Source of the DNA: Polyangiales bacterium
GTDB taxonomy: Bacteria > Myxococcota_A > Polyangia > Polyangiales > Houyiibacteriaceae
DNA: 64,000 nt
Assembly (NCBI GenBank): GCA_965227405.1
Contig: OZ245758.1
Coordinates: 3,124,338 to 3,188,337, forward strand
Reading direction: 5' to 3'
Each line of letters starts with the position of its first letter. Within the stretch, counting starts at the first letter, position 1. Under the pieces are notes generated by a model. That model ran no database searches. It was not told where the DNA came from and saw only the letters and a program-made list of their open reading frames with translations. Shown piece by piece: positions 39,914 through 59,563 of this stretch. A program made the position numbers and the translations under genes.

Positions 39914-41635
39914 CTACCAACCCACCACAAGCGGGTCGTCGGTCATCGATGTTCGGCGGCGCATGTTGTTATTGCGCATCGTGTTGCGCATCGACGCGGT
40001 TCGCATCTCTGAACGCGCTGACGTCATCGTGACCATTTCAGCCACCGGTTCCGGATCCACCTCGGGCTGCGCAATCGCAACTTCGGGCGCCTGCTCCACT
40101 TCGGGCTCTTCAGGCTGCTCCACTTCCGGTTCAATTACCGGTTCCGCGGCCTCGGGTTCCACGGCGGTGACTTGAGCGACTGTTTCCGGTTCGGTCTCTG
40201 CGGGCTCCATCGGAGCGTTTGGCTCCAACGATTCGGCCACGGGGGTCGACTCGCCGCTAAACACCCAAACCGATCCGATTCCGATGCCGACAACCAGCGC
40301 AGCAACTGCAGCGATCAGCGGCAATCGGTTTGGACGACGAGGCGCAGGAATCGTATCGGGCGCACCATTGTCGACGGTCAGTTCGATCGTCACCGCGTTG
40401 TCGAGGTCCGGCTTGTCCTTGTCGGCCTTCTTGCCTCGCTCAAGCGTGATCGCTTCGCTGGTATCGATCGACTCCAACCCCGGATGCGAGGGCGTGGGCG
40501 TGACCATCGTCGGGACAATTCCGGAAGTCGGATCGATCTGCCCGGTTGGCGTGACGACGATCGGCGTCGGCTGCAGTGCCGCAGCACCGTCGATCAGAAT
40601 CGCGTCGGGCGAACGGGTCATCTTGTCGAGCACGCTCGCGGGTACTTGCACCGTGACGGGCTTACCCAGCGCCGACGCGACCGAAGGATCGTGGTCGACG
40701 TTGATCTTCTCGGCCATGGAAGCGCCGATGAGCTCTGCCACCTGCTTCGCGGTGATCCGAAGCGCGCCTGGAACCGCACTGGCGAGCATCATCCGGAACT
40801 CGTCGCAGTTGGCAGGTCGCTGTTCTGGATCTTTGGACAAGGCTTTCATCAACGCTTTGTCGAGTGCCTTGGGAACTGAGATCAAACGCCCGGGACTCAC
40901 GACCTCCGGTTCGCGAACCATGTCCAAGAGGGCGAGGTCGTTTGGCGCGTCGAAGAGTCGACGCATCATCAACATCTCCCACAACACGATGCCCAACGTG
41001 TAGAGGTCGGAGCGATGGTCGAGTTCGCGACCGCGGGCCTGTTCCGGCGACATATAGCGGAACGTTCCCTTGAGCATTCCGCCTGTCGTCTTGGTCGCAC
41101 GCCCTGCAGCTTTCGCGATACCAAAGTCGATCACTTTGACGTAGCCCTTGAACGCAACCAACACGTTCTTGGGGCTGACATCCCGGTGGACGATGCCGAG
41201 CGGGTTGCCTTCATCGTCCGTAGTTTCGTGTGCGGCATGCAGACCCGCGGCGATTTGCATCGCGATCCAGGTCGCCACTTCCGGGGAGAGCCTGCGGCCC
41301 AACTTGGCGACCGCCCGCATCAACTGCGTCAGCGACACCGAAGGCACGTACTCCATGACCAGGAAGTAGTGGTTGTTCGCAAACCCGAGGTCGTGAACAT
41401 GAACGACGTTCGGATGTTCGATACGCGCCGTGATTCGCGCTTCGTCGAGGAACATCTTCACGAAGCCCTCGTCGTCCGCGAGGTGGTCATGCACGACCTT
41501 GATCGCGACATGCTTCGCGAACCCTGCGGCGCCCTGACGTCGTCCAAGGTAGAGCGCCGCCATGCCACCCGCTTTGAGCTTGGCCACAATCTCGTAGCCA
41601 GCGATGGTGTCGCCTACCTGCATTCCCCGCGACAC
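39914..41635 (-). CDS. Hanks-type Ser/Thr protein kinase with C-terminal TM segment and Pro/Glu-rich tail
   Basis: GxGxxA loop KLKAGGMAALY, VAIK, HRDVSPKNVLV catalytic loop, DFGIAKA, SPEQ activation segment. Confidence 0.9.
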   Translation of the reverse strand: MSRGMQVGDTIAGYEIVAKLKAGGMAALYLGRRQGAAGFAKHVAIKVVHDHLADDEGFVKMFLDEARITARIEHPNVVHVHDLGFANNHYFLVMEYVPSVSLTQLMRAVAKLGRRLSPEVATWIAMQIAAGLHAAHETTDDEGNPLGIVHRDVSPKNVLVAFKGYVKVIDFGIAKAAGRATKTTGGMLKGTFRYMSPEQARGRELDHRSDLYTLGIVLWEMLMMRRLFDAPNDLALLDMVREPEVVSPGRLISVPKALDKALMKALSKDPEQRPANCDEFRMMLASAVPGALRITAKQVAELIGASMAEKINVDHDPSVASALGKPVTVQVPASVLDKMTRSPDAILIDGAAALQPTPIVVTPTGQIDPTSGIVPTMVTPTPSHPGLESIDTSEAITLERGKKADKDKPDLDNAVTIELTVDNGAPDTIPAPRRPNRLPLIAAVAALVVGIGIGSVWVFSGESTPVAESLEPNAPMEPAETEPETVAQVTAVEPEAAEPVIEPEVEQPEEPEVEQAPEVAIAQPEVDPEPVAEMVTMTSARSEMRTASMRNTMRNNNMRRRTSMTDDPLVVGW

Positions 41636-41734: not shown

Positions 41735-42283
41735 CTAGTTCAACTTGCGGCGCACTTCGTTCGCGCAGTTCTCGAGATCTCGTCCGGATTCACCCGCGGT
41801 CTTTTCCACCCAACGGGCTGCACTGCGAACGTCCCCGAACAAACGAACAGGTCGTTCGCGTGCGATCAATGCCACGATCGCCTTGGCAATTGTGCGGATC
41901 GCTGCGCCGATCACACCCTTCTGCAACACGACGAGTGCAATGGCACGCACGCGTCCCGGTCCGTCCTCGCTCGCTTCGCGCCATACCGCACGCGTTTCGC
42001 CCGATGGCGCACTCTTCGCACCTTCGATCACGATCAGCAGCGATGCTTGGCCCAGTTCGTCGGCTGTGTCGCGAACGGCTTGGATTTCCTCACGTGCCTC
42101 CGCCGGCGTTGGCGTTCCAATATGCCAACCCACCACTGTGCTTCCTTGACGTTCCCAGCCGAACACTGACGCGTTGTACCTCGCCTGTGGTAAGAATGCA
42201 TGCGATGCGCTCCGCGGGACTGCTTGCCGTATGTCTAGCTTGGTCAGCGCTGGCCCCGTCGACTGCGGAGGCCCAAGACGCAC
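41735..42283 (-). CDS. Hypothetical protein
   Basis: ORF with coding periodicity. The 5' end overlaps the divergent + gene by ~85 bp, so the true start is probably internal. Confidence 0.3.
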   Translation of the reverse strand: MRLGPPQSTGPALTKLDIRQAVPRSASHAFLPQARYNASVFGWERQGSTVVGWHIGTPTPAEAREEIQAVRDTADELGQASLLIVIEGAKSAPSGETRAVWREASEDGPGRVRAIALVVLQKGVIGAAIRTIAKAIVALIARERPVRLFGDVRSAARWVEKTAGESGRDLENCANEVRRKLN

Positions 42284-42948
42284 GCGAGCTCTTCACGCAA
42301 GGCGTCGAGGCCATGGGCGCAGAGCAGTACGAGCGCGCACGCGATCTCTTCAAACAAGCGTACGAGCTGTCCCAGCGCCCTAACATCTTGGTCAATTTGG
42401 GAAGTGCGCAGCGTCAGGTTGGCGAGCTTCTCGAAGCGCGTGCTTCGTACGAGCGGTTTCTCGAAGAGTCCGACGACCGCCGTTTGAACCGCCGTGTCGA
42501 GCAAGAACTTGAGGACGTCGAGTCGCTGATCCCGCAGCTCACGATTCGAGTCGAGAATCTCGGCGGCGGCGATCGCGTGCAGGTCGACCACGAAGATGTC
42601 GAAACCCTCGACGAGCCGTTCGAGATCAATCCAGGTCTGCGCGAAGTCCGCGTGATGCGTGGTGAGCGTGAGTTGACGTCGATTCGTGTTCGAGTTGAGC
42701 CTGAGGGTCGCGAGTTGGTCGAGCTGAGCGTTCCCGATGTCACCGATCCGGCGGAAGTCGCCATCGCACAACCGGATCCGGACCCCGATCCGGACCCCGA
42801 TCCGGGCGGAAGCAACGTGGGTGTGATCGTGGGCGTGACCTTGGGCGTGGTTGCTGTTGCCGTCGCGGTGGTGCTCGCCATTGTTCTGAGCGGCGGCGAG
42901 GATCCCTTTCAGGGCAGCATCCCGCCGGGAAGCGTGGACGTGCCATGA
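42198..42948 (+). CDS. Secreted TPR-like protein with C-terminal (PD)n linker and TM anchor
   Basis: MHAMRSAGLLAVCLAWSALAPSTAEA signal. AMGAEQYERARDLFKQAYELSQRPNILVNLGSAQRQVGELLEARASYERFL TPR-like pair. PDPDPDPDPDPG, then TM VGVIVGVTLGVVAVAVAVVLAIVL. Confidence 0.55.
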
Positions 42949-43391
42949 GGGCTTTGCTTCTCGCGTTGTTTCTCGCTAGCTGCGGCAGCGATGTCACCGA
43001 ACTGGTGATCGTGATCGAGAGTCCGGACTTACCGATCCCCGACGAGCTGCAGCAGATCGATCTGATCGTGACCGGTCCGGATGGTTCGACGGTGGTCGAC
43101 ACGATGCTGGATTTCACACTGCCCGGCGCACCCGAGCCGCCCTTGACCTTGGGACTGGTGCAAGAGGGCGAAGCAGGACCGATCGTGGCCGAAGCGATTG
43201 GTCGCACAGCCGGTGGTCAGGTCGTGACACGCACGATGCGAACGAACTTCGTGGATGGCGAGTCACGCCGAGTCACGTTGCCGCTGCAAGGTGCGTGTTT
43301 GGACATGACGTGTTCTCCGGGGATGACGTGCGACAACGGCATTTGCGTGTCGGACGAAGTCTTCGGCGAGTCGCTGCCACCGTTTCCTTAG
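42945..43391 (+). CDS. Lipoprotein, hypothetical
   Basis: MRALLLALFLASCGSD lipobox. ATGA overlap with the upstream gene. Confidence 0.5.
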   Translation: MRALLLALFLASCGSDVTELVIVIESPDLPIPDELQQIDLIVTGPDGSTVVDTMLDFTLPGAPEPPLTLGLVQEGEAGPIVAEAIGRTAGGQVVTRTMRTNFVDGESRRVTLPLQGACLDMTCSPGMTCDNGICVSDEVFGESLPPFP

Positions 43392-44619: not shown

Positions 44620-44652
44620 GACGTCGACTTTACGCTACGAGTGCTGGTGTAA

Positions 44653-47270: not shown

Positions 47271-47443
47271 GGGTCACCTCGGAACCCTTTGCAACGGCTG
47301 TGCCTTCGACCCCACCGGATGCATCGCGAACGATGTGTGGATCGTTGTCGACAGACTGATGCAGGCGTGCACCGGGGATGGGTCTGGATCGGGTGCGAAG
47401 TGCACGTCGCGAAGGAGGCCCAGTTCTTGAAATGCCCAGTGAG

Positions 47444-49112: not shown

Positions 49113-50641
49113 GGTACCCTTGTCGGATGCGAAGGGTCGCGATGTTGACGCTCTTGCTTGCGTGCGACCCTTCACTTGGCTGGACGGTGGCCTCGACTTG
49201 TGAAGGGCAGGTCGCTCTTGCCGTCGAGACCGGTGATTGCGGAAGCCGATCGGGTGCACCGACCCAATCCACCAACGATGGCGAACTCACGATCGAGAAC
49301 ATCGAGCCGGGCCTCTATTGCTTGTCCACTCTTGCGTACGTGTCTTCCGACACGCGATCGACAAGTACGAATGGGTTCGACTGTCGTTTGCTCGATGTGG
49401 ACTCGCAAACGCGCAACCTACCCATGGAGCGTTCGTCGTTGGTCGCGACGCTGACCTGTTCTGAACCTCCGGTGCCGAGCGCCGCTTTGGACACGCTCTT
49501 GGAAGAAGTCGCGGGTTGTTCTCCTGCGTGTGATGTCGAGAGGTGTACGTGCTCGGCGAGTTGTGTGGAGCAAGGGACAGGGGAGTGTCCCGCTCCGGTA
49601 CGTGGTCGGCAGTTGGCGATCTCGGACAACTTCGTCTGCGCCTTGGCGGTGGATAGTCGAGGGCTCAGCTGTTGGGGGACGGGGTTGGCGCCAGGAACGC
49701 ACCTTGGCGCTGCCTTGGGAGAGGCCCCTGGTGTTGCTCGGTACTTTGATGTCGACACACTTCGCGTTGATCCACCAACAGAAGAAGACGACCGCAGAAT
49801 CTTCACCATGGCCGCCGATGAAGATCGTTTGTGCTTCAATCTTCGAAAGAGCATTGAGTGCGTCGACGTGCAGACACATTCTCTGGCGAGCGAGGTCGTG
49901 GATGCAACGGCCCCCACCCGGATCGCGGTCAGCTCGAACGTGTTCTGCGTCGGAGAGGCGAACCCCAACTGCGTTGCAAGTGGCGATGACATGCCTGCAA
50001 GGTTCCTCGACAGCGCCTTTCGCGGTGGCAACGAAGTAACCGGAACGAGCGGCGAGATCTGTTCAATCGTCGGTGGGCAGGTGGTGTGTGCGACACCTAC
50101 GAGACTGCCGCCGCGACGCTGCACCGATCGTTCGTGCCCAAGCGGTTTGATCTGTGTTGAACAGGAGCGCGGAGAATCGGTCTGTCAGACGCCACCCATC
50201 GACCTGCCCGTCACAATCGCTCTTGACTCTGGCTGGGGACGGAACTGCGTCGTCACCTCAATGCGAGACGTTCGCTGCTGGGAGAGTGGTGAATTGTCTC
50301 CGCGTACGGTCCAACGCGAGGCCGAGGGTGAACTGAAAGCTTTGGATGTGTCGGTTGGCGAAGATCACATCTGTGTTCTGCGCAATGAAGGTGGCGTCGA
50401 GTGTGGGAGGCTTTCACTGTCAGGTGACGAGTACCGATTTGCATCGGCAGAGCTACTCGACGTCGAAAACGTCGGTGACTTCGTCGCCGGTCCTGACGGA
50501 GTGAGCTGCGTGATCCGACTTGATGATTCGGCCGTGGTTTGCTCACAACTCGCGGACTTCGTCGTCGACGGGACACCCAGTCCTTTGCTCGGAATTGGGA
50601 ACACCTCGACGCTCGACCCCAATCCTCCGGTGTGTCCATGA
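49109..50641 (+). CDS. Cys-rich secreted lipoprotein, hypothetical
   Basis: MRRVAMLTLLLACDPS lipobox. Repeated ...C.ES/C.GE... segments. ATGA overlap with the esterase gene. Confidence 0.5.
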   Translation: MRYPCRMRRVAMLTLLLACDPSLGWTVASTCEGQVALAVETGDCGSRSGAPTQSTNDGELTIENIEPGLYCLSTLAYVSSDTRSTSTNGFDCRLLDVDSQTRNLPMERSSLVATLTCSEPPVPSAALDTLLEEVAGCSPACDVERCTCSASCVEQGTGECPAPVRGRQLAISDNFVCALAVDSRGLSCWGTGLAPGTHLGAALGEAPGVARYFDVDTLRVDPPTEEDDRRIFTMAADEDRLCFNLRKSIECVDVQTHSLASEVVDATAPTRIAVSSNVFCVGEANPNCVASGDDMPARFLDSAFRGGNEVTGTSGEICSIVGGQVVCATPTRLPPRRCTDRSCPSGLICVEQERGESVCQTPPIDLPVTIALDSGWGRNCVVTSMRDVRCWESGELSPRTVQREAEGELKALDVSVGEDHICVLRNEGGVECGRLSLSGDEYRFASAELLDVENVGDFVAGPDGVSCVIRLDDSAVVCSQLADFVVDGTPSPLLGIGNTSTLDPNPPVCP

Positions 50642-51477
50642 GGTTGACGGCATTGTTGTTGAGCTTGTTCAGCATCCCTGGATTCGCTCAGTCTCCCGGC
50701 TCCGAAGTCGAAGAAGTTGAGCAAGACGCGCAACGCCAGGACACTCAGCACGAACCGACCACTGCTGAAGAGTTCCTTGTCGCCATCGACCAAGCGCTTG
50801 CTGATGAGGCTATCCAACAGGCAAGTACGTTGCTCGACCAAGCGTTTCAGTGTGAAACGATCAGTCGGGCGCAGCTCTCTCGGATGACCCAGTTGCGCGC
50901 AGCGTTTGCCTACGCAAATGGTGAGCTCGGTCAGTTGGAGCGTTCACTCGCTGGCCTTGCAACCCTCGATGCAGAGCTCGAGGCGGGACTTGCGCCACCT
51001 CCGGTCCAAGCACGCTATGCCGAAGTGCGTGAGAGCAGTCCCGAGCTCGCCCTGGATGTAGAAGTCGCGAGCGAAGTCGTCGACGGTGTTCGGGTTGCGC
51101 GTTTGGTTTCCCGGGTGGATGGCGATCCGGGTCGGTTGGTGCACGGCGTTCGAATCCGCGCTGCGCTTGAGGGTGCACCACTGCGTCTTCTCGGCTCAGA
51201 CGACCAACTTGAGCTTGGCGACCCACACGAGCCGATCAATCTCGACTTCACCCTCGAAGCGTTGGGTGTCGGAGGCGCGGTCGTGGGTCGTCGCGGAGCA
51301 CCGGACTCCCCGGTTTCGTTGCACGTCGAAGCGCTCCCCAAAGATCGAACATTTCTGTATGTCACTCTCGCGACAATCGCTGTTGTGGTCGTCGCAGGAG
51401 CAATTGGGTTTGGGTTTGCGTGGGTGCTCACCGACGGTTTCACCCGCGGGGATGACACGGAGGTAAGCGTGCGATGA
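50638..51477 (+). CDS. Secreted protein with signal peptide and C-terminal TM anchor
   Basis: MRLTALLLSLFSIPGFAQS signal. C-terminal TM LYVTLATIAVVVVAGAIGFGFAWVL. Overlaps the upstream stop. Confidence 0.5.
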   Translation: MRLTALLLSLFSIPGFAQSPGSEVEEVEQDAQRQDTQHEPTTAEEFLVAIDQALADEAIQQASTLLDQAFQCETISRAQLSRMTQLRAAFAYANGELGQLERSLAGLATLDAELEAGLAPPPVQARYAEVRESSPELALDVEVASEVVDGVRVARLVSRVDGDPGRLVHGVRIRAALEGAPLRLLGSDDQLELGDPHEPINLDFTLEALGVGGAVVGRRGAPDSPVSLHVEALPKDRTFLYVTLATIAVVVVAGAIGFGFAWVLTDGFTRGDDTEVSVR

Positions 51478-51480
51478 CGC

Positions 51481-53124
51481 CTACCTCGGCTGAAAATGCA
51501 GCCGGAGATTGAGTCGTTGGCCGGGAGCTAACGGGATGACTTTGCGAACGAGCCTGTCTGGGACCTGCGCGGCGCTGTCCGCATACGGAATCTGATAGAT
51601 CGTGTACTCGCCCGGTGGTCGACTTCGCCTTGCTGGCACCAGCCCTCCGACAGCTCGGTTCCTACCTGCACAGTTGTCGATACAAACGGCGATACCGTTC
51701 GGAACCACAAACTCTCCCGGCGGTCCTTCGAGCGGTGGTTCTGCCTCGCGGACTTCCTCCATCGGTTGCATCTGCGGTGGCCGTCGCGGTTCATCCCGCG
51801 GCGATGTCTCCATCTCGGAGGGACCAGTCGACATGGTTGGTCGCACCGGTTCTTGGGTCGGTTCCGAAGGCGGAGTCTCTTGGACCGGTTCCGAAGCGGG
51901 AGTCTCTTCCGCAGGCTCACCAGGAGTCGTGGGTTCAGGAGGCGTCCCAACTGCAGCGAGCTCTTCGGCACCCTCGGCTTCGGTGGAAGCCGTTGCTGTT
52001 GTATCTGAGGGCCATGCCGCCCATGTACCGACGCTCAACAGAACCAGCGTGCTGAGGATGATGGGCAGCGTTCGAGAGCGCCGCGGTCGTTGAATGTTGG
52101 TCCGCGACAACCGCTCTGAAACGTCGATCGAGATTTCCTCGAGCGTACCTTCCACCGGTTCCGGTTGGGCCCGCTTCGGTGCGTCACTCTTCTCGTCGTC
52201 TCTGGCAAGGAGAGCGTCTGCATAAGTTTGGCGTTCGCGTCGCGACATCGGGCCACCGAGTGGCTGGAGTGCAAGTTGAAGCCGATCCGCATACTCCAGT
52301 GCAGTGGATGGTCTGTCGTTGGGGTCTCGTTGCAGTGCGATCAACGCGATGTCGCACGGGAGATCTGCGAGCGAAGGTCTGATCTCATCGGGACGGGGGA
52401 TCGGTCCGTTGAGGACGGCAAGTATCGTTTCTGGCTGCGTCGCGCGACGAAAGAGCGGACGCAAGGTCAGAAGCTGGTGATGAATCACACCAAGCGCCCA
52501 AATGTCTGACCGGCGCTCAGCACGTCCGTGTGTTTGCTCGGGTGACATGTACGAGAACTTGCCTTTGACCTCATCCGGCATGGTTTGGTGGATGCGATTG
52601 CGTGCTTTGGCGATGCCAAAATCCAGCACCTTCACTTCGCCGGCGTTGGTCAGAAACAAGTTCGACGGAGAGACATCACGATGGACGATCTCCAAAGGTT
52701 CTCCATCCTCGTTTCTCGCTTCGTGCGCCGCATGAAGACCTTCGGCCGCTTCGATGATCAGCGTGGTGACGAAGCGGAAGCAGTCTTGGTCACTTGGAGC
52801 CCGCGTCACGAGAGCCTTGAGCACGCGGAGTACTGTGGTTCCCGTCAGCAGCTCCATGACGATGAATGCACCATCTGCGCCGTCTCCATAGTCCAAGATG
52901 CGGCAGACGTTCGGATGATTGATCTGCGAAACGATCCGCGCCTCGTCCAAGAACATCTCGCGAAAGCTGACGTCCTTGGACAAGTGCGGGTGAATGCGCT
53001 TTAGCGCGACCGTGCGACCAACACCGGCGGTCGTGGCGCGGGCTTCATAGACGGTAGCCATTCCGCCTGAAGCGAGCTCCCGAACGAGTTCGTATCGACC
53101 TTCTGTGGTGACGACCACACTCAC
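51481..53124 (-). CDS. Hanks-type Ser/Thr protein kinase with Pro/Glu-rich linker and C-terminal domain
   Basis: ELASGGMATVYEA, VALKRI, HRDVSPSNLFL, DFGIAKA, SPEQ. Confidence 0.9.
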   Translation of the reverse strand: MSVVVTTEGRYELVRELASGGMATVYEARATTAGVGRTVALKRIHPHLSKDVSFREMFLDEARIVSQINHPNVCRILDYGDGADGAFIVMELLTGTTVLRVLKALVTRAPSDQDCFRFVTTLIIEAAEGLHAAHEARNEDGEPLEIVHRDVSPSNLFLTNAGEVKVLDFGIAKARNRIHQTMPDEVKGKFSYMSPEQTHGRAERRSDIWALGVIHHQLLTLRPLFRRATQPETILAVLNGPIPRPDEIRPSLADLPCDIALIALQRDPNDRPSTALEYADRLQLALQPLGGPMSRRERQTYADALLARDDEKSDAPKRAQPEPVEGTLEEISIDVSERLSRTNIQRPRRSRTLPIILSTLVLLSVGTWAAWPSDTTATASTEAEGAEELAAVGTPPEPTTPGEPAEETPASEPVQETPPSEPTQEPVRPTMSTGPSEMETSPRDEPRRPPQMQPMEEVREAEPPLEGPPGEFVVPNGIAVCIDNCAGRNRAVGGLVPARRSRPPGEYTIYQIPYADSAAQVPDRLVRKVIPLAPGQRLNLRLHFQPR

Positions 53125-53148
53125 GCGTGGTCGAGATTATCACGACTA

Positions 53149-55071
53149 CTACGACTCAGACTTCTCGGACTTCTCAGACTTCTCGGACTTCACGACGCGG
53201 ATCGACAGCTCTTCGAGCTGGTTGTCGTCCACAAGTCCCGGTGCGCCGGTCATCAAATCGTTGGCGCGCTGGGTCTTGGGGAACGCGATCACATCGCGAA
53301 TCGACTCGGTCTGGCACGCGAGCATTGCGACGCGGTCCATGCCAAAGGCGATGCCCCCATGCGGAGGTGCACCGTAGGTCAACGCGTCCAGGAGGAAACC
53401 AAACTTGTCGCGTGCGTCTTCGTCCGTCAGGCCGATGACTTCGAACACCTTGGCTTGAACGTCGGGTTTGTGCAGACGAATGGAACCACCGGCGATCTCG
53501 AACCCGTTGAGCACGAGGTCGTAGCGGTAGCACTTCACCATGCCGGGGTCGGTGCCGAGCTTCTCGACATCTTCGTCGTGGGGACGCGTGAACACGTGGT
53601 GAGCCGCAGCCCAACCGTCGCCGTCTCGCTCAAAGAGCGGTGGCTCGACCACCCACAGGAAGTTCCAGTCTCCGTCGGTGCCAACCTCGGGAATCATCCC
53701 GAACTTCTTGCCGAGGTGAACGCGAAGCTTGTCCATGACGGTGTGCACGACACCTTCGGGACCAAACTGGAAGAGCAGGAGGTCGCCAGCTTCAGCGCCG
53801 CACGCCTTGTTGATCGCGAGCCGAAGTTCGTCGCTGATCGTCTTGGCAAAGGGGCTCTGCGTCCACGCACCGTCTTCGTTGACCTTGGCGCGCGCCAGGC
53901 CCTTGGCGCCGTTTTGCTTGCAGAGCTTCTCCAGCAAGTCGGTGTCCTTGCGGCTGAGCTTGTGCTCGGCCGGGACGCGGATCGCTTTGACGATCTCTTC
54001 GGGCAGTTCGAGTCGGTAGGTGCCGTCCTTGAACTTGCTGGCAAGAGGCTCCAGCAGCGGCACGCCACCACCGCCGTGCTCCACAATGAGCTCGGTCAAC
54101 TCGATGTGCTCGAGTCCGAAACGCATGTCGGGCTTGTCGTTTCCGAAGCGGCGCATCGACTCGTAGAAGTTGAGCCGCGGGAACTTCCCGTCGGGATAAC
54201 GCTCGGTGAGATCGACGCCCAGTTCCTTCCACAGACGCACCACGAGGCCTTCGAGCATCGTGAAGAGGTCGTCCTGGTTGATGAACGACATCTCGATGTC
54301 GATCTGGGTGAACTCGGGCTGACGGTCGATGCGCAGCGCTTCGTCGCGGAAGCAGCGCACGATCTGGAAGTAGCGGTCGTAGCCACCCACCATCAGCAGC
54401 TGCTTGTAGAGCTGCGGACTTTCGGCGAGTGCGTACATGCTTCCTGGGTAGAGCCGCGCAGGCACCAAGAAGTTTCGTGCACCACCTGGGGTGTACTTCA
54501 CCAGGTAGGGCGTTTCGACTTCGAGAAACCCGTTGGCGTGAAAGTACTCGCGCGTGGCTTGGTTGAGCTTGGACCGAAGAACCAAGTTCTTCTGCAGCTG
54601 CGGACGACGAAGGTCGAGGTAGCGGTACGCGAGACGCTTGTCCTCGTTGGTGTCGATGTCGTCTTCGATCTGGAAGGGCGGGGTTTGCGCTTCGTTGAAG
54701 ATCGCCATCTCGAGCGCGACAACTTCGATCGCGCCGGTGGCCAGGTTCGGGTTGTGCAGCGAGCCGCCGTCGTCTTTGGTTCCGCGATCACGCACTTTGC
54801 CGCGGATGCCGAGGCACCACTCGCCGCGTGCGCGATCCGCCTCGGGGAACTTCGTCGCGGGATCGAATACAACCTGGGTCAGTCCCTCGCGATCGCGAAG
54901 GTCGATGAAGATGCAGCCGCCGTGATCTCGGCGGTTGTGAACCCAGCCAAAGAGGACAACCTCTTGGTCGATGTGATCTTGGCGAAGCTCTCCGCAGGTG
55001 TGGGTTCGCTTCAGCTCGTCGATAAATCGCGCCACGCTTCGTGTGCCTTTCCGTCCGCGGGACCAGCGCAC
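53149..55071 (-). CDS. aspS: Aspartate--tRNA ligase with an unusual C-terminal (SEK)n tail
   Basis: N-terminal OB fold RTHTCGELR...VVLFGWVHNRRDHGGCIFIDLRDREG. Class II motifs FQIVRCFRDEALR, GGSIRLH, GAPPHGGIAFGMDR. Start may be a GTG ~36 nt inside the ATG. Confidence 0.9.
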   Translation of the reverse strand: MRWSRGRKGTRSVARFIDELKRTHTCGELRQDHIDQEVVLFGWVHNRRDHGGCIFIDLRDREGLTQVVFDPATKFPEADRARGEWCLGIRGKVRDRGTKDDGGSLHNPNLATGAIEVVALEMAIFNEAQTPPFQIEDDIDTNEDKRLAYRYLDLRRPQLQKNLVLRSKLNQATREYFHANGFLEVETPYLVKYTPGGARNFLVPARLYPGSMYALAESPQLYKQLLMVGGYDRYFQIVRCFRDEALRIDRQPEFTQIDIEMSFINQDDLFTMLEGLVVRLWKELGVDLTERYPDGKFPRLNFYESMRRFGNDKPDMRFGLEHIELTELIVEHGGGGVPLLEPLASKFKDGTYRLELPEEIVKAIRVPAEHKLSRKDTDLLEKLCKQNGAKGLARAKVNEDGAWTQSPFAKTISDELRLAINKACGAEAGDLLLFQFGPEGVVHTVMDKLRVHLGKKFGMIPEVGTDGDWNFLWVVEPPLFERDGDGWAAAHHVFTRPHDEDVEKLGTDPGMVKCYRYDLVLNGFEIAGGSIRLHKPDVQAKVFEVIGLTDEDARDKFGFLLDALTYGAPPHGGIAFGMDRVAMLACQTESIRDVIAFPKTQRANDLMTGAPGLVDDNQLEELSIRVVKSEKSEKSEKSES

Positions 55072-55136
55072 GGTAGTCCCGGCCGCACGGAGGTCAAGCC
55101 GTCGAGATCACAGAGATCTGCGCTAGAGTCCGCCGC

Positions 55137-56096
55137 ATGTGGCGTTTGGCCATCGTGATCCTGGTCGCTTGCGCAGGCAGTCCGCGTCGCGACCTGCCGC
55201 CGGCTCCACCGGGCGCACAGGAGGTTCTGCTCGACGCCGGGTATCGAGTCGCGTGGCCGTGGGTTGCGGTGCGTCTGGACGCGCGAGGCACCCGCACCGA
55301 CGAGCACTACCTGCGAGCGGGACAATGCCTGGCGGTGATCGTCTCGGATCCCTCGATTCAGATCGAAGCGGGCGGCGCGACGGGGCTTTCGACCGCCCAA
55401 GGTTCGTGGCTGGTGGGTTGCGTGCCCACCGACGGGCCAGTGCCGGTGACCTTGCAGGGCGAGGGGCGCGGACGCGTGGTGGTGGGTCTCTTCATCGGGA
55501 TGCCTGAAGCGAACGCTCACGTCCTGCTCGCCGAACACTTTCGGTACGCCGTGCCCGAGGCCGAACAAGTCCCCACGACACTTCTGATGCAGGAGAACGC
55601 GTGTGGCGAAGACGAGGCCCGTGGGCATTATCAACGCGGCATGGAACTCGCGCGCGAAGAGAAGTTTGCGGAGGCGGGTGACGCCTTGGCATTGGCATAC
55701 GCGTGTCATGCGGACGGAACGATCCTGTTCAACCTTGCGACGGTGACTGCGCAGCGCGGTCGTGAACAGGAAGCGCGGGAAATGTTTGTTCAGCTGCTGC
55801 GCGACCATTCGAACTTGCCGGATGAACGGCGGACTCAAGTTCAAGAGTCGCTCGATCGGCTTCTCCGGCCAGGCACAATTCGCATTCGGGTCGCTCGCGG
55901 GGATCAGCTTTTCGTCAACGAGGTTCGCTGCTCGTTCGAAGGCCAGCATGCCGAGGTGGTCGCGATGCCGGGTAGCCATCGCGTGTTGCTACGCAGTCCG
56001 GACGGAGAACGCCACGAGGTGCGCGTGCAGCTACGTTCCACGCAGACCGTCGAGATCGATCCTCGACTCTGGGTGTCCACCGCCGAGAGCGAATGA
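55137..56096 (+). CDS. Secreted lipoprotein, kinase-linked paralog family member 1 (N-terminal beta domain, TPR-like helical block, C-terminal beta domain)
   Basis: MWRLAIVILVACAGSP lipobox. Conserved block GDALALAYACHADGTILFNLATVTAQRGREQEAREMFVQLLRDH shared with 56181..57224. Confidence 0.6.
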   Translation: MWRLAIVILVACAGSPRRDLPPAPPGAQEVLLDAGYRVAWPWVAVRLDARGTRTDEHYLRAGQCLAVIVSDPSIQIEAGGATGLSTAQGSWLVGCVPTDGPVPVTLQGEGRGRVVVGLFIGMPEANAHVLLAEHFRYAVPEAEQVPTTLLMQENACGEDEARGHYQRGMELAREEKFAEAGDALALAYACHADGTILFNLATVTAQRGREQEAREMFVQLLRDHSNLPDERRTQVQESLDRLLRPGTIRIRVARGDQLFVNEVRCSFEGQHAEVVAMPGSHRVLLRSPDGERHEVRVQLRSTQTVEIDPRLWVSTAESE

Positions 56097-56180
56097 TCCT
56101 AAGCGGTGGCTGAAAAAACGGTGCCGGCGCACGCGTCTTCCCAAGACCTGAGCAGGTGAACGTGCAAGAGTGCGAGCACG

Positions 56181-57224
56181 GTGAGATCGCTTGCGCTCAG
56201 CGTTTGTTTGGCCTGCGGCGGCACGGCAGCAGCAGGCCCTGGACTTCAAGCCACGTTGCGTGACGTGAACTCCGGTCTGCGCAACGAAGGGCTGATCCTC
56301 CACGAAGATGGCTGGCTCGAGTTGACGCTCAGCGACGACGGGTGGACGCGCTCGCATGAGCTCGAGCCCAACAGTTGCCTGACGGCTGTTGCGCTGAGCG
56401 ATGAACTGGTGTCGGTCCACGTCGGCCTCCAGGAAAGCGAGCAATCCGACGGTGCGTCGTGGATCTCGGTTTGCGCAGAGGACGACGCACGCAGCATGGA
56501 CGTGCGCTTGGAAGGGCCGCCCGAGACAGCGGTTGCGTTTGCGTTGTTCACGGGTCCAGTCGGCGGCGACGCGTTTGCACGCTCGTACTTTCAAACCGAC
56601 ACCCCACCGGAAATCATGGAGCCGGTAGCTGCAGAACCCACGCCGAGTGAACCCGAGACACTGGTCCTTCCAACACCCACGCCCACGCCTACCGAGCGCT
56701 GCGACGATGACGAAGCGCGCGAGCACTACCGGCGGGGAATGCGCTTTGCCCGTGAGAACGAACTCGGTCGCGCCGCCGATGCACTTGCTTTGGCGTACGC
56801 ATGTCACGCCGATGGGACGATCTTGTTCAACCTCGCAAGCGTGACTGCACAGCAGGGAAATCTAGAAGAGGCACGCCAAATGTTTGTGCAGCTTCTTCGT
56901 GATCACCCCAACGTTCCCGATGCTTTGCGGGCTGAAGTCGACTCGGCCTTGGACTCTCTTCGGCGCCCGGGCACTCTGATCGTATCGGTGCGACGCGGTG
57001 ACCAGGTTTTCATCAACGGAGTGGAAGTCGAGGCTGGCAATCGGAATCAGAATCAGCGCCGACGTCGACTTCGCGTGCGAGTGCTGCCAGGCACTCACCG
57101 CATCGTTGTGCGCTCCGGTGCCCGACGGTTCAACGCAGAGGTGCGAACCGAGGGTCGAGACGAAGTCAGCGTGGACCCGCGAAACGCGAGCAACCGAAGT
57201 AGCGGCCCGCCGGAGTCGCGTTAG
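56181..57224 (+). CDS. Secreted lipoprotein, kinase-linked paralog family member 2
   Basis: GTG start, VRSLALSVCLACGG lipobox. ADALALAYACHADGTILFNLASVTAQQGNLEEARQMFVQLLRDH. Stop lies 3 nt before the kinase ATG. Confidence 0.6.
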   Translation: MRSLALSVCLACGGTAAAGPGLQATLRDVNSGLRNEGLILHEDGWLELTLSDDGWTRSHELEPNSCLTAVALSDELVSVHVGLQESEQSDGASWISVCAEDDARSMDVRLEGPPETAVAFALFTGPVGGDAFARSYFQTDTPPEIMEPVAAEPTPSEPETLVLPTPTPTPTERCDDDEAREHYRRGMRFARENELGRAADALALAYACHADGTILFNLASVTAQQGNLEEARQMFVQLLRDHPNVPDALRAEVDSALDSLRRPGTLIVSVRRGDQVFINGVEVEAGNRNQNQRRRRLRVRVLPGTHRIVVRSGARRFNAEVRTEGRDEVSVDPRNASNRSSGPPESR

Positions 57225-57227
57225 CCC

Positions 57228-58775
57228 ATGAGCAAGGTCTCGCGCATTGGTGCCTACGACATCGTTGCGAAGCTCGGCAGCGGTGGGATGGCCGATGTGT
57301 ACCTCGGCACGAAAACCGGCGCCGCGGGATTTAGTCGACCGGTTGTCGTGAAACGTATTCGAGACTCGCTGCGCGGCAAGACCGACGTTCAGCAAATGTT
57401 TATCGACGAAGCGCGGCTTTCGTCACGCATCCAGCATCCCAACGTGGTGGGAGTGGAAGAGCTCGGTGAAGAAGACGGCTGCTTCTTCATGGTCATGGAG
57501 TACGTGCACGGCGTTGAGCTCGCAGCACTCTTGCGCGACCTGGCGCAGATACGACGCCAGCTGACTCCGGATGCAGCGGTGGCGATTGCCTGTGCCGTTG
57601 CGGATGGACTGCACGCAGCGCACGAAGCTCGAGACGCGCAAGGCCGAGCGCTTGGGGTCGTGCACCGCGACGTGAGCCCGCAGAACATCATCTTGTCGGC
57701 GAACGGCGGCGTGAAGGTGATCGACTTTGGCGTCGCGAAAGCCGCGTATCGTCTGCACCGTACCGAAGGTCACAAGATCAAGGGCAAGCTGCGCTACATG
57801 AGCCCAGAGCAGATCAACGGCGAGGTCGATCGTCGTAGCGATCTCTTCGCGCTGGGCGTCGTGTTGTGGGAGTGCTTGACGAACCGGCGCCTGTTTAGCG
57901 AGTCGGACGACATGGTGGTGCTCAAGCGCATCCAAGAAGGCGACATTCCACCGCCCAGTCAGTTTGCGAAGACCACTCGCGAGTTGGACTCGGTCGTCAT
58001 GCAGACACTCGCCGTGAATCCCGATATCCGGCCGCCGACTGGCCGCAAACTTCGGCAGATGCTGCAGCGAGCGGTTCCAAGCGCTCAAGAGTTTGATGAC
58101 GCTGCGTGCGCCGCACTTCTGATGGCAACGCTGGGAGGCGAACTCGAGGACCAGGCGCGTCGGCTCATGGTTCCGGTGCAGATGGCGCTCAACACGCAAG
58201 AGCTCACCACCGAACCCGCCCAAGCGTTGCAGCGATTCACGATGGAGTGGGTGGAAGCTCCGCGACACGTGGTGAGCACGCCGAACGTCTTCATGGAGCC
58301 TGTGGCGCAAGAGTCGGCGCGGCCGATGAACGCGCCGGCATCTGCTCCGAAGCGACCTTCGCATTGGTTGATCGGAGCGATCGCGGGCTTGGCGGTGTTT
58401 CTGGGCATCGCGGGTGCGGGACTCTTCTTTATGGCGCGCGAAGAACCGGCAGAATCTACATCGGATGCTGTGACCGTGATCGCGCCACCTGCTCAGCCTT
58501 TGGCGCAGCCGGTTCAGGCCACGGCCGATCCCACTCCGGAGCCCGCTGCGGATCCTTCAGAGCCTGTCGAGCCCATCGAGGAAACCGATAACGAAGCGGA
58601 CGCAGGGACGGAAGCGGAGCCACGACGATCTTCGAGACGCACGCCGCGAAACCGGATGCGCGAAAATCCGGCGGCATCGACCGCAGAGCCATCGTCCTCC
58701 GCGGACTCAGACATGTCTGATGATCGGGGCTTTCGGTTGATCGAAACCGAAGACCCTTTTCAAGACGAGTTCTAG
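57228..58775 (+). CDS. Hanks-type Ser/Thr protein kinase with C-terminal TM and acidic tail
   Basis: KLGSGGMADVYLG, VVVKRI, HRDVSPQNIIL, DFGVAKA, SPEQ. TM WLIGAIAGLAVFLGIAGAGLFF. Confidence 0.9.
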   Translation: MSKVSRIGAYDIVAKLGSGGMADVYLGTKTGAAGFSRPVVVKRIRDSLRGKTDVQQMFIDEARLSSRIQHPNVVGVEELGEEDGCFFMVMEYVHGVELAALLRDLAQIRRQLTPDAAVAIACAVADGLHAAHEARDAQGRALGVVHRDVSPQNIILSANGGVKVIDFGVAKAAYRLHRTEGHKIKGKLRYMSPEQINGEVDRRSDLFALGVVLWECLTNRRLFSESDDMVVLKRIQEGDIPPPSQFAKTTRELDSVVMQTLAVNPDIRPPTGRKLRQMLQRAVPSAQEFDDAACAALLMATLGGELEDQARRLMVPVQMALNTQELTTEPAQALQRFTMEWVEAPRHVVSTPNVFMEPVAQESARPMNAPASAPKRPSHWLIGAIAGLAVFLGIAGAGLFFMAREEPAESTSDAVTVIAPPAQPLAQPVQATADPTPEPAADPSEPVEPIEETDNEADAGTEAEPRRSSRRTPRNRMRENPAASTAEPSSSADSDMSDDRGFRLIETEDPFQDEF

Positions 58776-58779
58776 AGTA

Positions 58780-59037
58780 CTAGTGGCCGAGTCGGTCGCA
58801 GGCGGCTTGGCTGCCGGCGTAGCAAGCTTCCTCAAGCTGAGGGCGTTCCATCGCGTCGAGTTCAGCGCGCGTGAACGAGGGCGGCGTGTCGTCCTCTTCC
58901 TCGAGTTCCTCTTCTTCGTCTTCGATCTCGGTTTCGGCCTCTGCTGGCGTCTCCGTTGGAGGTTCAACGGGAGCGGCTTCTTCCGGTTCTCCGCCGCATC
59001 CGAGAAGGGCGGCGATGACGACAGCACGCAACAACAT
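58780..59037 (-). CDS. Small acidic lipoprotein, hypothetical
   Basis: Internal start MLLRAVVIAALLGCGGEPEE (lipobox). Glu-rich. Confidence 0.4.
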   Translation of the reverse strand: MLLRAVVIAALLGCGGEPEEAAPVEPPTETPAEAETEIEDEEEELEEEDDTPPSFTRAELDAMERPQLEEACYAGSQAACDRLGH

Positions 59038-59082
59038 GGTCAATGAATAGCAGCATTTGGAGAGCGTCGATATGCTTGGACC

Positions 59083-59382
59083 ATGCGTTTCCTCGTCCCG
59101 ATCGTTGTGCTCGCGTTGCCCTTGGTGGTTCTTGCTGCGGATCAGACCGAAGTGCCGAGTTGTGTGGAGGTGACGAAAGAAGCGCCCTACCAGGCGTACG
59201 GTCACACCCACATCGTGGTGATCCGAAACGGGTGCGACGAAGCGGTGCAGTGCCGTGTGGCGACGAACGTGGATCCGGAAGAGCAGCGGGTCACGGTGCA
59301 GGCCGGCGAGACCTCGCGAACGGCAACACGGAGGGGAAGCCCGTCGCGAGAGTTCGACGCGAGGGTGAGCTGTACGGAGTAG
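59083..59382 (+). CDS. Small secreted protein, hypothetical
   Basis: MRFLVPIVVLALPLVVLAADQ signal. 4 Cys. Confidence 0.4.
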   Translation: MRFLVPIVVLALPLVVLAADQTEVPSCVEVTKEAPYQAYGHTHIVVIRNGCDEAVQCRVATNVDPEEQRVTVQAGETSRTATRRGSPSREFDARVSCTE

Positions 59383-59563
59383 GTCGCTCTATTTTTTAGT
59401 GGAAGTTTCGAAGGCGCAAGACTCAAGGTGAGCTGTCATTTTCATGGGTACCTCGGAGTCGCGACACCCAGATTTAATTTCGGTCTACCGCGCTCTCTTT
59501 CGTCTGGGCCTCCCTCGACTTCGAATCTTCCACAAAATTAATGAATAGAGCGTAAACCCACAC

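Follow-up and report, generated by a model that had tools for sequence, protein, structure and literature searches.

Tandem TPR–PEGA lipoproteins as putative periplasmic co-receptors of a Hanks-type kinase in a Polyangiales bacterium

Two lipoprotein genes in tandem, followed directly by the gene of a Hanks-type Ser/Thr kinase, were analyzed in a 64,000-nucleotide stretch of DNA from a Polyangiales bacterium (the window). The lipoproteins keep a near-identical TPR block under purifying selection, and the kinase carries beyond its membrane helix a tail that closes in an invariant peptide. Our preferred reading, held tentatively and at a little under even weight, is that the lipoproteins are periplasmic co-receptors of the downstream kinase, the TPR groove capturing the C-terminal peptide of the kinase. 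The pattern points to a sensor-plus-kinase partnership, so far undescribed, that occurs widely among these bacteria.

A myxobacterium can have dozens to hundreds of Hanks kinases, many of which lack a recognisable sensor domain, and to our knowledge the input signal of nearly all of them is unknown. If the conserved end of the tail docks into a TPR–PEGA protein of the same operon, many membrane kinases that seem 'sensorless' would gain a defined periplasmic partner, and kinase–sensor pairs could be predicted from sequence by rule.

Lipoprotein genes and their conserved TPR block

The open reading frames of both lipoproteins and of the kinase were recovered where the initial annotation had placed them (Table 1), with the kinase ATG at 57228, 3 nt (CCC) past the TAG of paralogue 2. 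The paralogues lie 84 nt apart in one orientation, and the trio lipo1-lipo2-kinase is best read from its sequence as one operon. The two proteins are 38% identical overall (BLASTP, E 4e-51) and have a common layout: a lipobox and a β jelly-roll are joined by a disordered linker to two TPR repeats, which a capping helix closes, and a PEGA-like β domain comes last. The linker is short in paralogue 1 and longer and Pro/Thr-rich in paralogue 2 (aa 141-171). The regions flanking the block had been described as less than 30% identical, which is correct for the N-terminal domains (about 27%) but not for the C-terminal β domains (about 40-50%).

Table 1. Coordinates of the lipoprotein, module and kinase features in the window
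Feature	Position	Strand	Description
Second Hanks kinase	39914..41635	-	TM at aa 435-462; divergent from the 42196-42948 gene
Distant module paralogue	42196..42948	+	250 aa; module HMM E 2e-43
Paralogue 1	55137..56096	+	319 aa, ATG start; module HMM E 1e-39; orthologues P0008-P0011
Conserved block, paralogue 1	55674..55808	+	aa 180-224, GDALALAYACHADGTILFNLATVTAQRGREQEAREMFVQLLRDH
Paralogue 2	56181..57224	+	347 aa, GTG start; stop TAG at 57222-57224
N-terminal domain, paralogue 2	56238..56591	+	aa 20-137; one helix and β jelly-roll
TPR region, paralogue 2	56706..56960	+	aa 176-260; helices A1, B1, A2, B2 and capping helix
Conserved block, paralogue 2	56772..56906	+	aa 198-242; helix B1, turn CHADGT, helix A2 (with Asn217), helix B2
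PEGA-like β-sandwich, paralogue 2	56970..57173	+	aa 264-331; seven strands predicted by AF2
Hanks-type Ser/Thr kinase	57228..58775	+	515 aa; Pfam Pkinase E 4.7e-37
Single TM helix of kinase	58356..58439	+	aa 377-404; hydropathy scan
Kinase outside tail	58440..58730	+	Pro/Ala/acidic, poorly conserved, disordered; Arg/Met-rich patch near end
Invariant C-terminal peptide of kinase	58731..58772	+	FRLIETEDPFQDEF-COOH

An AF2 model of paralogue 2 (m802adc4f5ebc) had a mean pLDDT of 80, with the domains above 90. The jelly-roll N-terminal domain, in which Cys66/Cys98 and Trp45/Trp94 are conserved in paralogue 2, is restricted to the lipoprotein subfamily of the window and resembles generic ligand-binding jelly-rolls. 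The TPR region was assigned to the TPR fold, which is defined by tandem 34-residue helix-turn-helix units in a right-handed superhelix and by a match to Pfam TPR models. No match to Pfam PEGA (PF08308) was obtained in the window lipoproteins at E values up to 1; the PEGA-like region aligned by profile HMM with the remote homologues P0031 and P0033, which themselves match PF08308, a β-sandwich of about 70 aa, in the aligned region (E 1e-12; 47.6 and 44.5 bits, respectively, against a cut-off of 20.8).

With the lipobox consensus taken as [LVI][ASTVI][GAS]-C closing a short signal peptide, LVAC of paralogue 1 and LTAC, VAAC and VVGC of distant homologues all fit. In paralogue 2 and its orthologues the motif reads C-(L/V/M)-A-C, in which Cys at -3 is atypical. 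The lipoproteins have signal/lipobox N-termini as well as two conserved Cys pairs, and both paralogues are predicted to be secreted. No membrane helix was found in the window lipoprotein subfamily.

Both paralogues carry the block DALALAYACHADGTILFNLA(S/T)VTAQ...EAR(Q/E)MFVQLLRDH, which takes in TPR1 helix B, the turn and the whole of TPR2. The initial annotation had called it near-identical and under strong purifying selection, and both statements were borne out. About 27 consecutive residues are 100% identical between the paralogues, a run whose naive chance against the 38% background is 0.38^27, or about 5e-12. In sliding windows the amino-acid identity of the block was 93-100% and its third-codon-position identity 0.33-0.53. 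Nei-Gojobori comparison of the paralogues gave a pS of 0.86 and a pN of 0.107 in the block, compared to a pN of 0.44 in the remaining TPR+PEGA region and 0.57 in the N-domain, and the synonymous sites of the block were as saturated as those of its flanks. Saturated pS together with low pN indicates purifying selection and not gene conversion. Recent conversion between the paralogues, which their tandem arrangement in the same orientation at 84 nt would favor, is thus refuted by the synonymous sites, and orthologues from six assemblies keep the block just as unchanged (11 of 11 family members, both paralogue groups); we regard conversion as next to impossible.

The conserved element had also been described as one short helical hairpin. 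It is not free-standing; it proved to be the signature core of the large TPR–PEGA superfamily (AR..F..G...A...F..AY.L.P....L.NLA). This coincidence attributes part, possibly much, of its conservation to folding and to a disulfide. The conserved Cys174 begins helix A1 and the conserved Cys208 ends helix B1; these positions are neighbours in a helical hairpin, and the two residues are probably paired. The block might then be kept only as the folding core of a disulfide-held two-repeat TPR, and the adjacency to kinase genes might reflect envelope co-expression and no specific partnership. Such an explanation would account for the match to AY.L.P....L.NLA, mostly small and hydrophobic residues, and for the side-by-side placement of Cys174 and Cys208. 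However, TPR structural cores normally accept conservative changes, whereas here about 27 straight positions are invariant in two paralogue lines despite saturated synonymous divergence; the polar turn residues H209, D211 and T213 are among the positions invariant in the subfamily, and so are residues of every helix face. Co-expression alone would not predict overlap with the kinase gene in three deep subfamilies, nor a matching tail motif. A purely structural role of the block is therefore judged unlikely.

The block of the window lipoproteins has the subfamily-specific residues C-H-A-D-G-T; R180, H182, R185, R191, R232, R240 and H242 belong to the invariant positions of the TPR. R180, in helix A1, is 83% conserved. 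Of 155 superfamily representatives, 146 (94%) have an equivalent of Asn217, one of the most conserved columns. Among PDB sequences the TPRs of OGT matched best, and N-L-A-S of the block was aligned to N-L-A-(S/N) of OGT. The OGT Asn aligned with Asn217 is presumably the asparagine-ladder position of the OGT TPR consensus. The ladder asparagines of OGT contact the backbone of unstructured peptides (PMC11145291).

Kinase tail and kinase linkage in relatives

The kinase encoded at 57228-58775 scored 128 bits with Pfam Pkinase (cut-off 31.7), placing it among the Hanks-type kinases, and its orthologues are 74-85% identical. The catalytic domain (aa 10-270) contains the motifs GSGGMA (G-loop), VVVK, HRDVSPQN, DFG and SPE. 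The NCBIfam model PknB_PASTA (NF033483), which has a cut-off of 450 bits, reached 230 bits and matched the kinase domain only; the protein is not a PASTA-type kinase. The TM helix is flanked N-terminally by KRPSH and C-terminally by AREE, which indicates an N-in/C-out orientation, and the catalytic domain, N-terminal to the sole TM helix, is therefore placed in the cytoplasm. The initial annotation had considered the lipoproteins as possible substrates of the kinase, a role that only their adjacency supports; the lipoproteins, with export signals, no TM and Cys pairs typical of the periplasm, are separated from the cytoplasmic catalytic domain, and this topology rules the role out but for a very small residual probability.

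A periplasmic portion, on which the idea of a periplasmic partner depends, is present in the kinase: one TM helix is followed by an outside tail of about 110 aa, in the same compartment as the lipoproteins. The last 14 residues are the only conserved extracytoplasmic feature, the rest of the tail being unalignable. The end FRLI(E/D)T(E/D)DPFxDxF is kept in L001, L002, L003, L168 and L169, and the distant L084 kinase retains it as FPLAEVDDPFADDF. The peptide is strongly acidic, a charge complementary to the basic invariant residues of the TPR.

A Hanks kinase gene lies directly after the lipoprotein gene in 10 of 10 recovered loci (6 of 6 close, 4 of 4 distant). The order lipo1-lipo2-kinase, with a 3-nt gap or a 4-nt overlap, was found in the window and in L001, L002, L003, L168 and L169, and the single-copy distant homologues P0012-P0015 (E 4e-54 to 1e-26) each have an overlapping kinase gene downstream. 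The window proteins are remote members (HMMER profile E 1e-9 to 1e-12 across TPR+PEGA) of the TPR–PEGA superfamily, which comprises 1,375 or more clusters at 50% identity; its members bear no annotation beyond 'PEGA domain' or 'TPR repeat' protein. A literature search found no publication on kinase linkage of the PEGA/TPR protein family.

In the soil Polyangiales subfamily a kinase gene was present directly upstream on the same strand in 33 of 40 evaluable loci; an adjacent kinase was found in 20 of the 24 loci with both flanks readable and in 14 of the 17 evaluable clusters at 70% identity. These kinases are composed of a kinase domain, one TM and a disordered tail with the end ...EPGxDL...(L/I)DE(R/K)DPY(A/S)(P/K)-COOH or LDxDNPFR-COOH. 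With tails read by eye, a [DN]P[FYL] end was recorded in 44 of 45 kinases lying at most 700 nt from a module and in 0 of 7 kinases having no module inside 1 kb, a group from which 4 orthologues of the 39914-41635 kinase were left out. The claim that the block always stands beside kinases thus held for the close and distant loci but not for the whole superfamily, in which the member L170 has no kinase in 3.3 kb and L172 has one two genes away; the superfamily-wide link to kinases is frequent, not universal.

The TPR block and the tail each take a form particular to the subfamily, and block and tail are conserved jointly in three subfamilies. Since the soil sample amounts to about one subfamily at 50% identity, only some three independent lineages bear on this pairing, and joint conservation is also expected from common descent of a linked gene pair without contact. 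A functional link in which the tail does not dock into the TPR is possible, though somewhat doubtful in our view. The lipoproteins would then bind another envelope component, for instance a peptide of peptidoglycan, a protein of the outer membrane or some secreted factor. They would share a pathway with the kinase or contact it by another route, and the tail would be read by a different factor, such as a PDZ protease or a C-terminal processing protease, or serve as a sorting signal. Operon linkage by itself leaves the contact unspecified, and the likeness of the N-domain to generic ligand-binding jelly-rolls fits this alternative, as do the C-terminal hydrophobic segments of most superfamily members, which could permit contact with the kinase inside the membrane. 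PDZ domains read C-terminal signals ending in aromatic residues, as in DegS/OMP recognition, and several tails have such ends (…DEF, …VGW, …DDF). On the other hand, the tails of the soil kinases close in …DPYAP or …DPYSK, with no aromatic residue at the end, and fit PDZ reading poorly, and the lipoprotein-kinase loci compared share no neighbouring protease or PDZ gene. Furthermore, the window lipoprotein subfamily lacks a membrane helix and can meet the kinase only in the periplasm, where the tail peptide is the one part of the kinase that is conserved.

Proposed co-receptor mechanism and known systems

In the co-receptor mechanism, the inner-membrane kinase, with its catalytic domain in the cytoplasm, would present to the periplasm only a disordered tether ending in FRLIETEDPFxDxF-COOH. 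The TPR core of the lipoprotein, stapled by Cys174-Cys208, would display the invariant Arg180 and Asn217 on its A helices, and its groove would hold the end peptide of the kinase in the manner of Hop, OGT and other TPRs with extended peptides. The diverged jelly-roll N-domains and the PEGA domain may bind different envelope ligands or anchor points, and the two alternative sensors would compete for, or take turns on, one kinase tail, altering kinase clustering and activity. A route by which one kinase could integrate two inputs is suggested by the tandem paralogues, whose TPR core is identical and whose sensor domains have diverged.

It is conceivable, although we doubt it more than the local mechanism, that Myxococcota possess an undescribed, widespread class of split receptor kinases in which the outside part of the kinase is reduced to a disordered tether, the tether motif (D/E)x(D/N)P(F/Y) near the carboxyl end plugs into the TPR groove of a separate TPR–PEGA co-receptor and duplicated co-receptors with different sensor domains, like those of the window, share one kinase. 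That docking would concern a large group of membrane kinases rests on the number of superfamily clusters, their generic annotation and the pairing in three subfamilies. Motif-based receptor/co-receptor signalling is familiar in eukaryotes, and we know of no such case among bacterial Hanks kinases.

Peptide-clamping TPRs line their concave groove with conserved Asn, Lys or Arg of the A helices, which contact the backbone or carboxylate of the ligand. The TPRs of Hop/Sti1 (TPR1 with Hsc70 EEVD) and of OGT, with its asparagine ladder, consist of three or more repeats, whereas the window proteins have two and a cap, and the classical carboxylate clamp (Lys/Asn/Lys/Arg; three repeats) was not identified in the window TPRs. 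Unlike Hop and OGT, the window proteins are periplasmic, predicted to be disulfide-stapled and lipid-anchored, and their peptide binding is putative. The outer-membrane lipoprotein regulators LpoA/LpoB/LpoP (with PBPs), CpoB, RcsF–IgaA and NlpE–CpxA showed no homology to them beyond generic TPR; in these regulators the tether is part of the lipoprotein, here of the inner-membrane protein, and a Hanks kinase takes the place of the PBP or histidine kinase. PknB/StkP (PASTA), PknD (β-propeller) and PknH are of the same catalytic family as the window kinase and are likewise single-pass with an extracytoplasmic C-terminal part, but the window ectodomain is a disordered tail with a short motif, the folded periplasmic domains being separate co-operonic proteins. 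The Polyangiales PEGA/TPR proteins (PF08308 and PF07719), whose family names 'PEGA domain-containing' and 'TPR repeat' have no function attached, differ from the window lipoproteins in that the latter have a predicted N-terminal lipid anchor and a jelly-roll replacing the C-terminal hydrophobic anchor.

Other module and kinase genes in the window

The gene at 50638-51477 lies tail-to-tail with the 51481-53124 kinase gene, as had been annotated, but this convergent pair falls outside the pattern. The 50638-51477 protein showed no homology to the lipoprotein family (hhalign probability 0.2%; no Pfam or NCBIfam match), the kinase carries a C-terminal globular domain of its own and does not end in DP[FY], and the segment with both genes is absent from relatives.

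The weaker copy of the block noted previously is real, and its gene is indeed divergent from the 39914-41635 kinase gene, but it starts at 42196 and not at 42198, and the match spans the TPR and the β domain. The protein aligned to the window lipoproteins with 25% identity over 168 aa (E 5e-5) and scored 29.1 bits with Pfam TPR_2 (cut-off 27). It consists of a signal peptide, 2 TPR repeats, a PEGA-like domain, a (PD)n linker, a TM helix and the conserved tail GGEDPFQGSIPPGSVDVP. This tail, predicted to be cytoplasmic, contains the DP[FY] motif, which is thus not exclusive to periplasmic kinase ends. The 39914-41635 kinase is of the same design as the 57228-58775 kinase, with a kinase domain, a TM, an acidic disordered tail, an Arg/Met-rich patch and the end ...MTDDPLVVGW. 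L002 and L003 conserve its C-terminus, L018, L031 and L004 have related ends (GPLIVDDF, ILIEDW), and the partner kinases of 42196-42948 homologues end in DDPLVVGW or GPLIVDDF.

The lipoprotein pair and its conserved block

The tandem lipoprotein genes, paralogue 1 and paralogue 2, and the Hanks-type kinase gene that follows them were present as the initial annotation had described them, with three bases between the TAG stop of paralogue 2 and the kinase ATG. The window has a G+C content of about 61% and its aspartyl-tRNA synthetase (AspRS) shares 88% identity with the counterparts in uncultured Myxococcota/Polyangiales metagenome-assembled genomes (MAGs). Promoter and terminator scans of 54900-59500 gave nothing informative.

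Features of the lipoprotein-kinase trio and of the neighbouring genes
Feature	Coordinates	Strand	Product	Remarks
Second Hanks-type kinase	39914-41635	-		Divergent from the TPR–PEGA paralogue
Small gene	41735-42136	-	~133 aa	No Pfam match on record
Distant TPR–PEGA paralogue	42196-42948	+		
Cys-rich lipoprotein	42945-43391	+	148 aa	MRALLLALFLASCGS…; Cys-rich C-terminus
MATCAP homologue	43402-44619	-		PF08014, E 5e-102; no signal peptide
FHA-domain sigma-54 activator	44653-45990			
Membrane protein	50638-51477			
Third kinase	51481-53124			
Paralogue 1	55137-56096	+	319 aa	ORF
Paralogue 2	56181-57224	+	347 aa, GTG start	ORF; start backed by orthologue alignment
Hanks-type kinase of the trio	57228-58775	+	515 aa	Pfam Pkinase E 4.7e-37; all catalytic motifs visible in the sequence
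Acidic lipoprotein	58780-59037	-	85 aa	Highly acidic, LLGCGG; just downstream of kinase
Secreted Cys-containing protein	59083-59382	+	99 aa	Weak A_amylase_inhib Pfam match in relatives

Overall identity between the two lipoproteins is 38% (E 4e-51). Sliding windows gave 93-100% identity in the block DALALAYACHADGTILFNLA(S/T)VTAQ and high identity again in the stretch EAR(Q/E)MFVQLLRDH, in agreement with the near-identical block first noted in otherwise diverged paralogues. The flanks had been put at less than 30% identity, which holds for the N-terminal domains (about 27%) but not for the C-terminal beta domains (40-60%). Third-codon-position identity in the block was only 0.33-0.53, and Nei-Gojobori analysis gave pS 0.86 and pN 0.107 for the block, against pN 0.44 and 0.57 for the flanking parts. 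These results indicate that the block is held by selection on the protein, as the initial annotation had proposed; gene conversion as the source of the identical block is ruled out by the saturated synonymous sites.

The structure of paralogue 2 was predicted with AlphaFold from an 11-sequence alignment. In the model, an N-terminal helix and beta-sandwich (aa 20-137, pLDDT >90) is joined by a disordered Pro/Thr linker (aa 141-171) to five helices (aa 176-260), and a beta domain of seven strands (aa 264-331) follows. The block spans most of helix B of TPR repeat 1, the turn and the whole of repeat 2. A purely structural role would account for a conserved helical core, but the polar turn residues and all helix faces are fully invariant over saturated synonymous divergence, making this explanation improbable. 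Two Cys pairs are conserved (C66/C98 and C174/C208, paralogue 2 numbering). C174 opens helix A1 and C208 closes helix B1, so that the two are neighbours in the hairpin and a disulfide stapling it is plausible. Both paralogues have an N-terminal lipobox; that of paralogue 1, like those of the distant homologues, is canonical, and that of paralogue 2 has an odd Cys at -3.

The close family of these lipoproteins is small, comprising 11 clusters in two orthologue groups among 5.8 billion proteins, and the block is invariant in all 11. Scanning 185,579 species-representative genomes for the patterns ADGTILFN and [DE]ALALAYAC returned 75 pattern matches and no relative; thus the subfamily is known from metagenome assemblies only. 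L004, whose AspRS is 88% identical, is the closest MAG with sufficient flanking sequence and has no trio adjoining AspRS.

The TPR–PEGA superfamily and its linkage to Hanks-type kinases

An exhaustive profile search retrieved 1,375 cluster representatives at E <=1e-3. Outside the close family only P0012, P0014, P0015 and P0018 aligned through the N-terminal domain in this search, and protein alignment revealed the domain in P0013 as well. The remaining matches cover profile positions ~170-330, corresponding to the TPR and beta domain, which in these proteins (~250-360 aa) directly follow the signal peptide. The beta domain of homologues P0031 and P0033 is the Pfam PEGA domain, and in most superfamily members C-terminal hydrophobic segments replace the putative lipid anchor. 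Database names are limited to 'PEGA domain-containing protein [Polyangiales]' or 'TPR repeat protein', and neither Pfam nor NCBIfam holds a specific model for the family. The superfamily shares the signature AR..F..G...........A...F..AY.L.P....L.NLA, and the block, judged by sequence comparison, is the subfamily version of its core.

Two further architectures were observed. Typical superfamily members (P0033, P0034, P0041 and others of alignment A5; loci L088-L167) carry, after a Pro-rich linker, a conserved C-terminal region of ~110 aa that contains two hydrophobic segments and finishes in G-x-F; this region may be a two-helix inner-membrane anchor or an outer-membrane signal. Some proteins (P0016, P0017 and P0019-P0023), 600-980 aa long, are built from six to nine tandem copies of the two-TPR unit (~72 aa, …AYEL.P.YK.L..LA…), followed in P0016 and P0020 by one PEGA domain; this repetition within single proteins indicates that the two-TPR unit is a modular repeat.

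The order lipoprotein 1-lipoprotein 2-kinase, with overlapping or nearly abutting genes, was found in 6/6 close loci (the window, L001, L002, L003, L168 and L169). The distant homologues with the N-terminal domain whose loci could be looked up (P0012, P0013, P0014 and P0015) are single-copy and followed by an overlapping kinase gene in 4/4 cases, extending the kinase adjacency first seen in the window. Alignment A5, of a soil subfamily of the module, was used to collect 80 metagenome loci as an independent sample; the broader 36-sequence alignment A4 had proved too variable to scan for loci. A same-strand kinase gene ended at or overlapped the TPR–PEGA start in 33 of the 40 loci with enough upstream sequence. 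The kinase was adjacent in 20 of 24 loci with both flanks readable and in 14 of 17 evaluable 70%-identity clusters; the sample is essentially one subfamily at 50% identity, so that about three independent lineages, not dozens, are counted. The initial statement that these proteins are always next to kinases therefore stands for every close and distant locus with the N-terminal domain that could be looked up and is too strict for the superfamily, as L170 (member P0027) has no kinase within 3.3 kb and in L172 the kinase lies two genes upstream in the same gene string. No kinase/TPR–PEGA fusion protein, which would be Rosetta-stone evidence, occurred among 87 matches. A general partnership between lipoprotein and kinase is probable.

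Kinase tails and a proposed docking site

The trio kinase has one TM helix (aa 377-404) in positive-inside orientation, which places a tail of about 110 aa outside. With its catalytic domain in the cytoplasm, the kinase cannot have the exported lipoproteins as substrates, and this part of the initial proposal was rejected. The lipoproteins have no TM helix, and any contact with the kinase must therefore be periplasmic.

Among orthologues of the trio kinase (74-85% identical overall) only an Arg/Met-rich patch and the 14 C-terminal residues of the tail can be aligned, the latter being invariant as FRLI(E/D)T(E/D)DPFxDxF (FRLIETEDPFQDEF-COOH in the C-terminal peptide). Among the periplasmic parts of the kinase, this peptide alone is conserved. 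FPLAEVDDPFADDF forms the end of the distant L084 kinase, and the second kinase, of the same design, ends in MTDDPLVVGW, conserved in L002 and L003. In soil kinases adjoining TPR–PEGA genes, a single TM helix is followed by a Pro/Ala-rich tail that ends in ...EPGxDL...(L/I)DE(R/K)DPY(A/S)(P/K) or LDxDNPFR. The tails were read by eye, a scripted motif criterion being judged too strict. The motif [DN]P[FYL] was found at the end of 44/45 kinases lying <=700 nt from a module and in 0/7 kinases without a module within 1 kb, a count that leaves out four orthologues of the second kinase with GPLIVDDF-like or ILIEDW-like ends and a module 1.3-2.5 kb away. Each subfamily pairs its own block variant with its own tail variant. 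Block and tail are thus conserved jointly, in linked genes, although co-inheritance of linked genes can mimic co-evolution of the two.

Acidic peptides in extended form, often C-terminal ones, are common ligands of TPR grooves. The best PDB sequence matches were the TPRs of OGT, which were weak (E 0.06), the N-L-A-S of the block aligning with OGT N-L-A-(S/N); from the OGT TPR consensus we take the aligned block Asn to be a ladder position. Of 155 diverse superfamily representatives, 146 have the corresponding Asn, and its column ranks, together with that of a helix-A1 Arg, among the best conserved. In OGT the asparagines of the ladder bind unstructured peptides through bidentate contacts with the peptide backbone (PMC11145291). 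Arg and His are frequent among the invariant TPR residues, and the kinase tail peptide is strongly acidic. Taken together, the single conserved periplasmic element, the OGT-like Asn and these charges led us to propose that the block would form and present a groove capturing the kinase C-terminal peptide. Paralogues 1 and 2, with identical grooves and diverged sensor domains, would then be alternative co-receptors for one kinase. Our data show linkage, topology and joint conservation; we infer both binding and its consequences, and this specific docking mode is tentative. The lipoprotein has two TPR repeats only, and a conserved DP[FY] also occurs on the predicted cytoplasmic tail of the distant paralogue. 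Both are caveats to docking. A partnership without tail docking, in which the kinase tail could be read by something else, is rather unlikely.

The individual parts (TPR, PEGA-like sandwich, lipobox and Hanks kinase) are known. The nearest functional analogies are LpoA/B/P, CpoB, RcsF and NlpE, envelope lipoproteins that regulate inner-membrane partners, and the peptide-clamping TPRs of Hop and OGT. On the other hand, the pairing of TPR–PEGA and single-pass kinase genes in operons, a kinase ectodomain reduced to a disordered tether and terminal motif, and the subfamily-specific joint conservation of block and tail appear to be undescribed. Searches of the searchable literature, which is incomplete, found nothing relevant on a PEGA/TPR/kinase link, and only unrelated papers for Mkap proteins.

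Neighbouring genes of the region

The distant TPR–PEGA paralogue is a typical superfamily member, with signal peptide, TPR, PEGA-like domain, (PD)n linker and TM helix. Its 25% identity with paralogue 2 over 168 aa confirms as homologous the weaker block copy first placed at 42198-42948. The tail after its single TM helix (42889-42945) reads GG(E/D)DP(F/Y)(Q/V/I)G(S/N)xPPGSxx(V/I)(P/R) and is also found in L002, L003, L004, L005, L018 and L031. Its DP[FY] resembles the kinase-tail motif but is predicted on the cytoplasmic side, where it could be a contact site for the cytoplasmic part of the kinase, or a coincidence.

The Cys-rich lipoprotein gene overlaps the stop of the distant paralogue by ATGA and is conserved in L002 and L003. 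In L170 a different Cys-rich lipoprotein overlaps the stop of P0027, and TPR–PEGA proteins may have a second recurrent partner in such lipoproteins. The small gene immediately upstream of the second kinase, on the same strand, is also called in L002 and L003, at the corresponding position. In L002, L003, L087 and L169 the MATCAP gene, whose family is named after a tubulin tyrosine carboxypeptidase, keeps its place near AspRS and the kinase modules. Its product was considered as a trimmer of aromatic kinase C-termini and rejected, since the lack of a signal peptide makes it cytoplasmic.

The membrane protein at 50638-51477 and the third kinase had been included in the same pattern, which was not upheld. 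The former resembles the TPR–PEGA family in gross layout, shows no detectable homology to it and was rejected as a member; the latter lacks a DP[FY] end and its C-terminal domain is folded. In L002 and L003 the MATCAP gene directly adjoins AspRS, and the ~44.6-53.1 kb segment that separates them in the window and contains this pair is therefore absent there. The segment (~44650-53130) is an insertion in the window or a deletion in L002/L003, and also encodes the FHA-domain activator, a 610-aa protein without Pfam match, a carboxylesterase and an RCC1-like protein. Near kinases, the activator is plausible as a phospho-Thr reader.

The acidic lipoprotein and secreted Cys-containing protein genes are syntenic in L001, L002, L003, L168 and L169, and their products might belong to the same envelope module as the trio.
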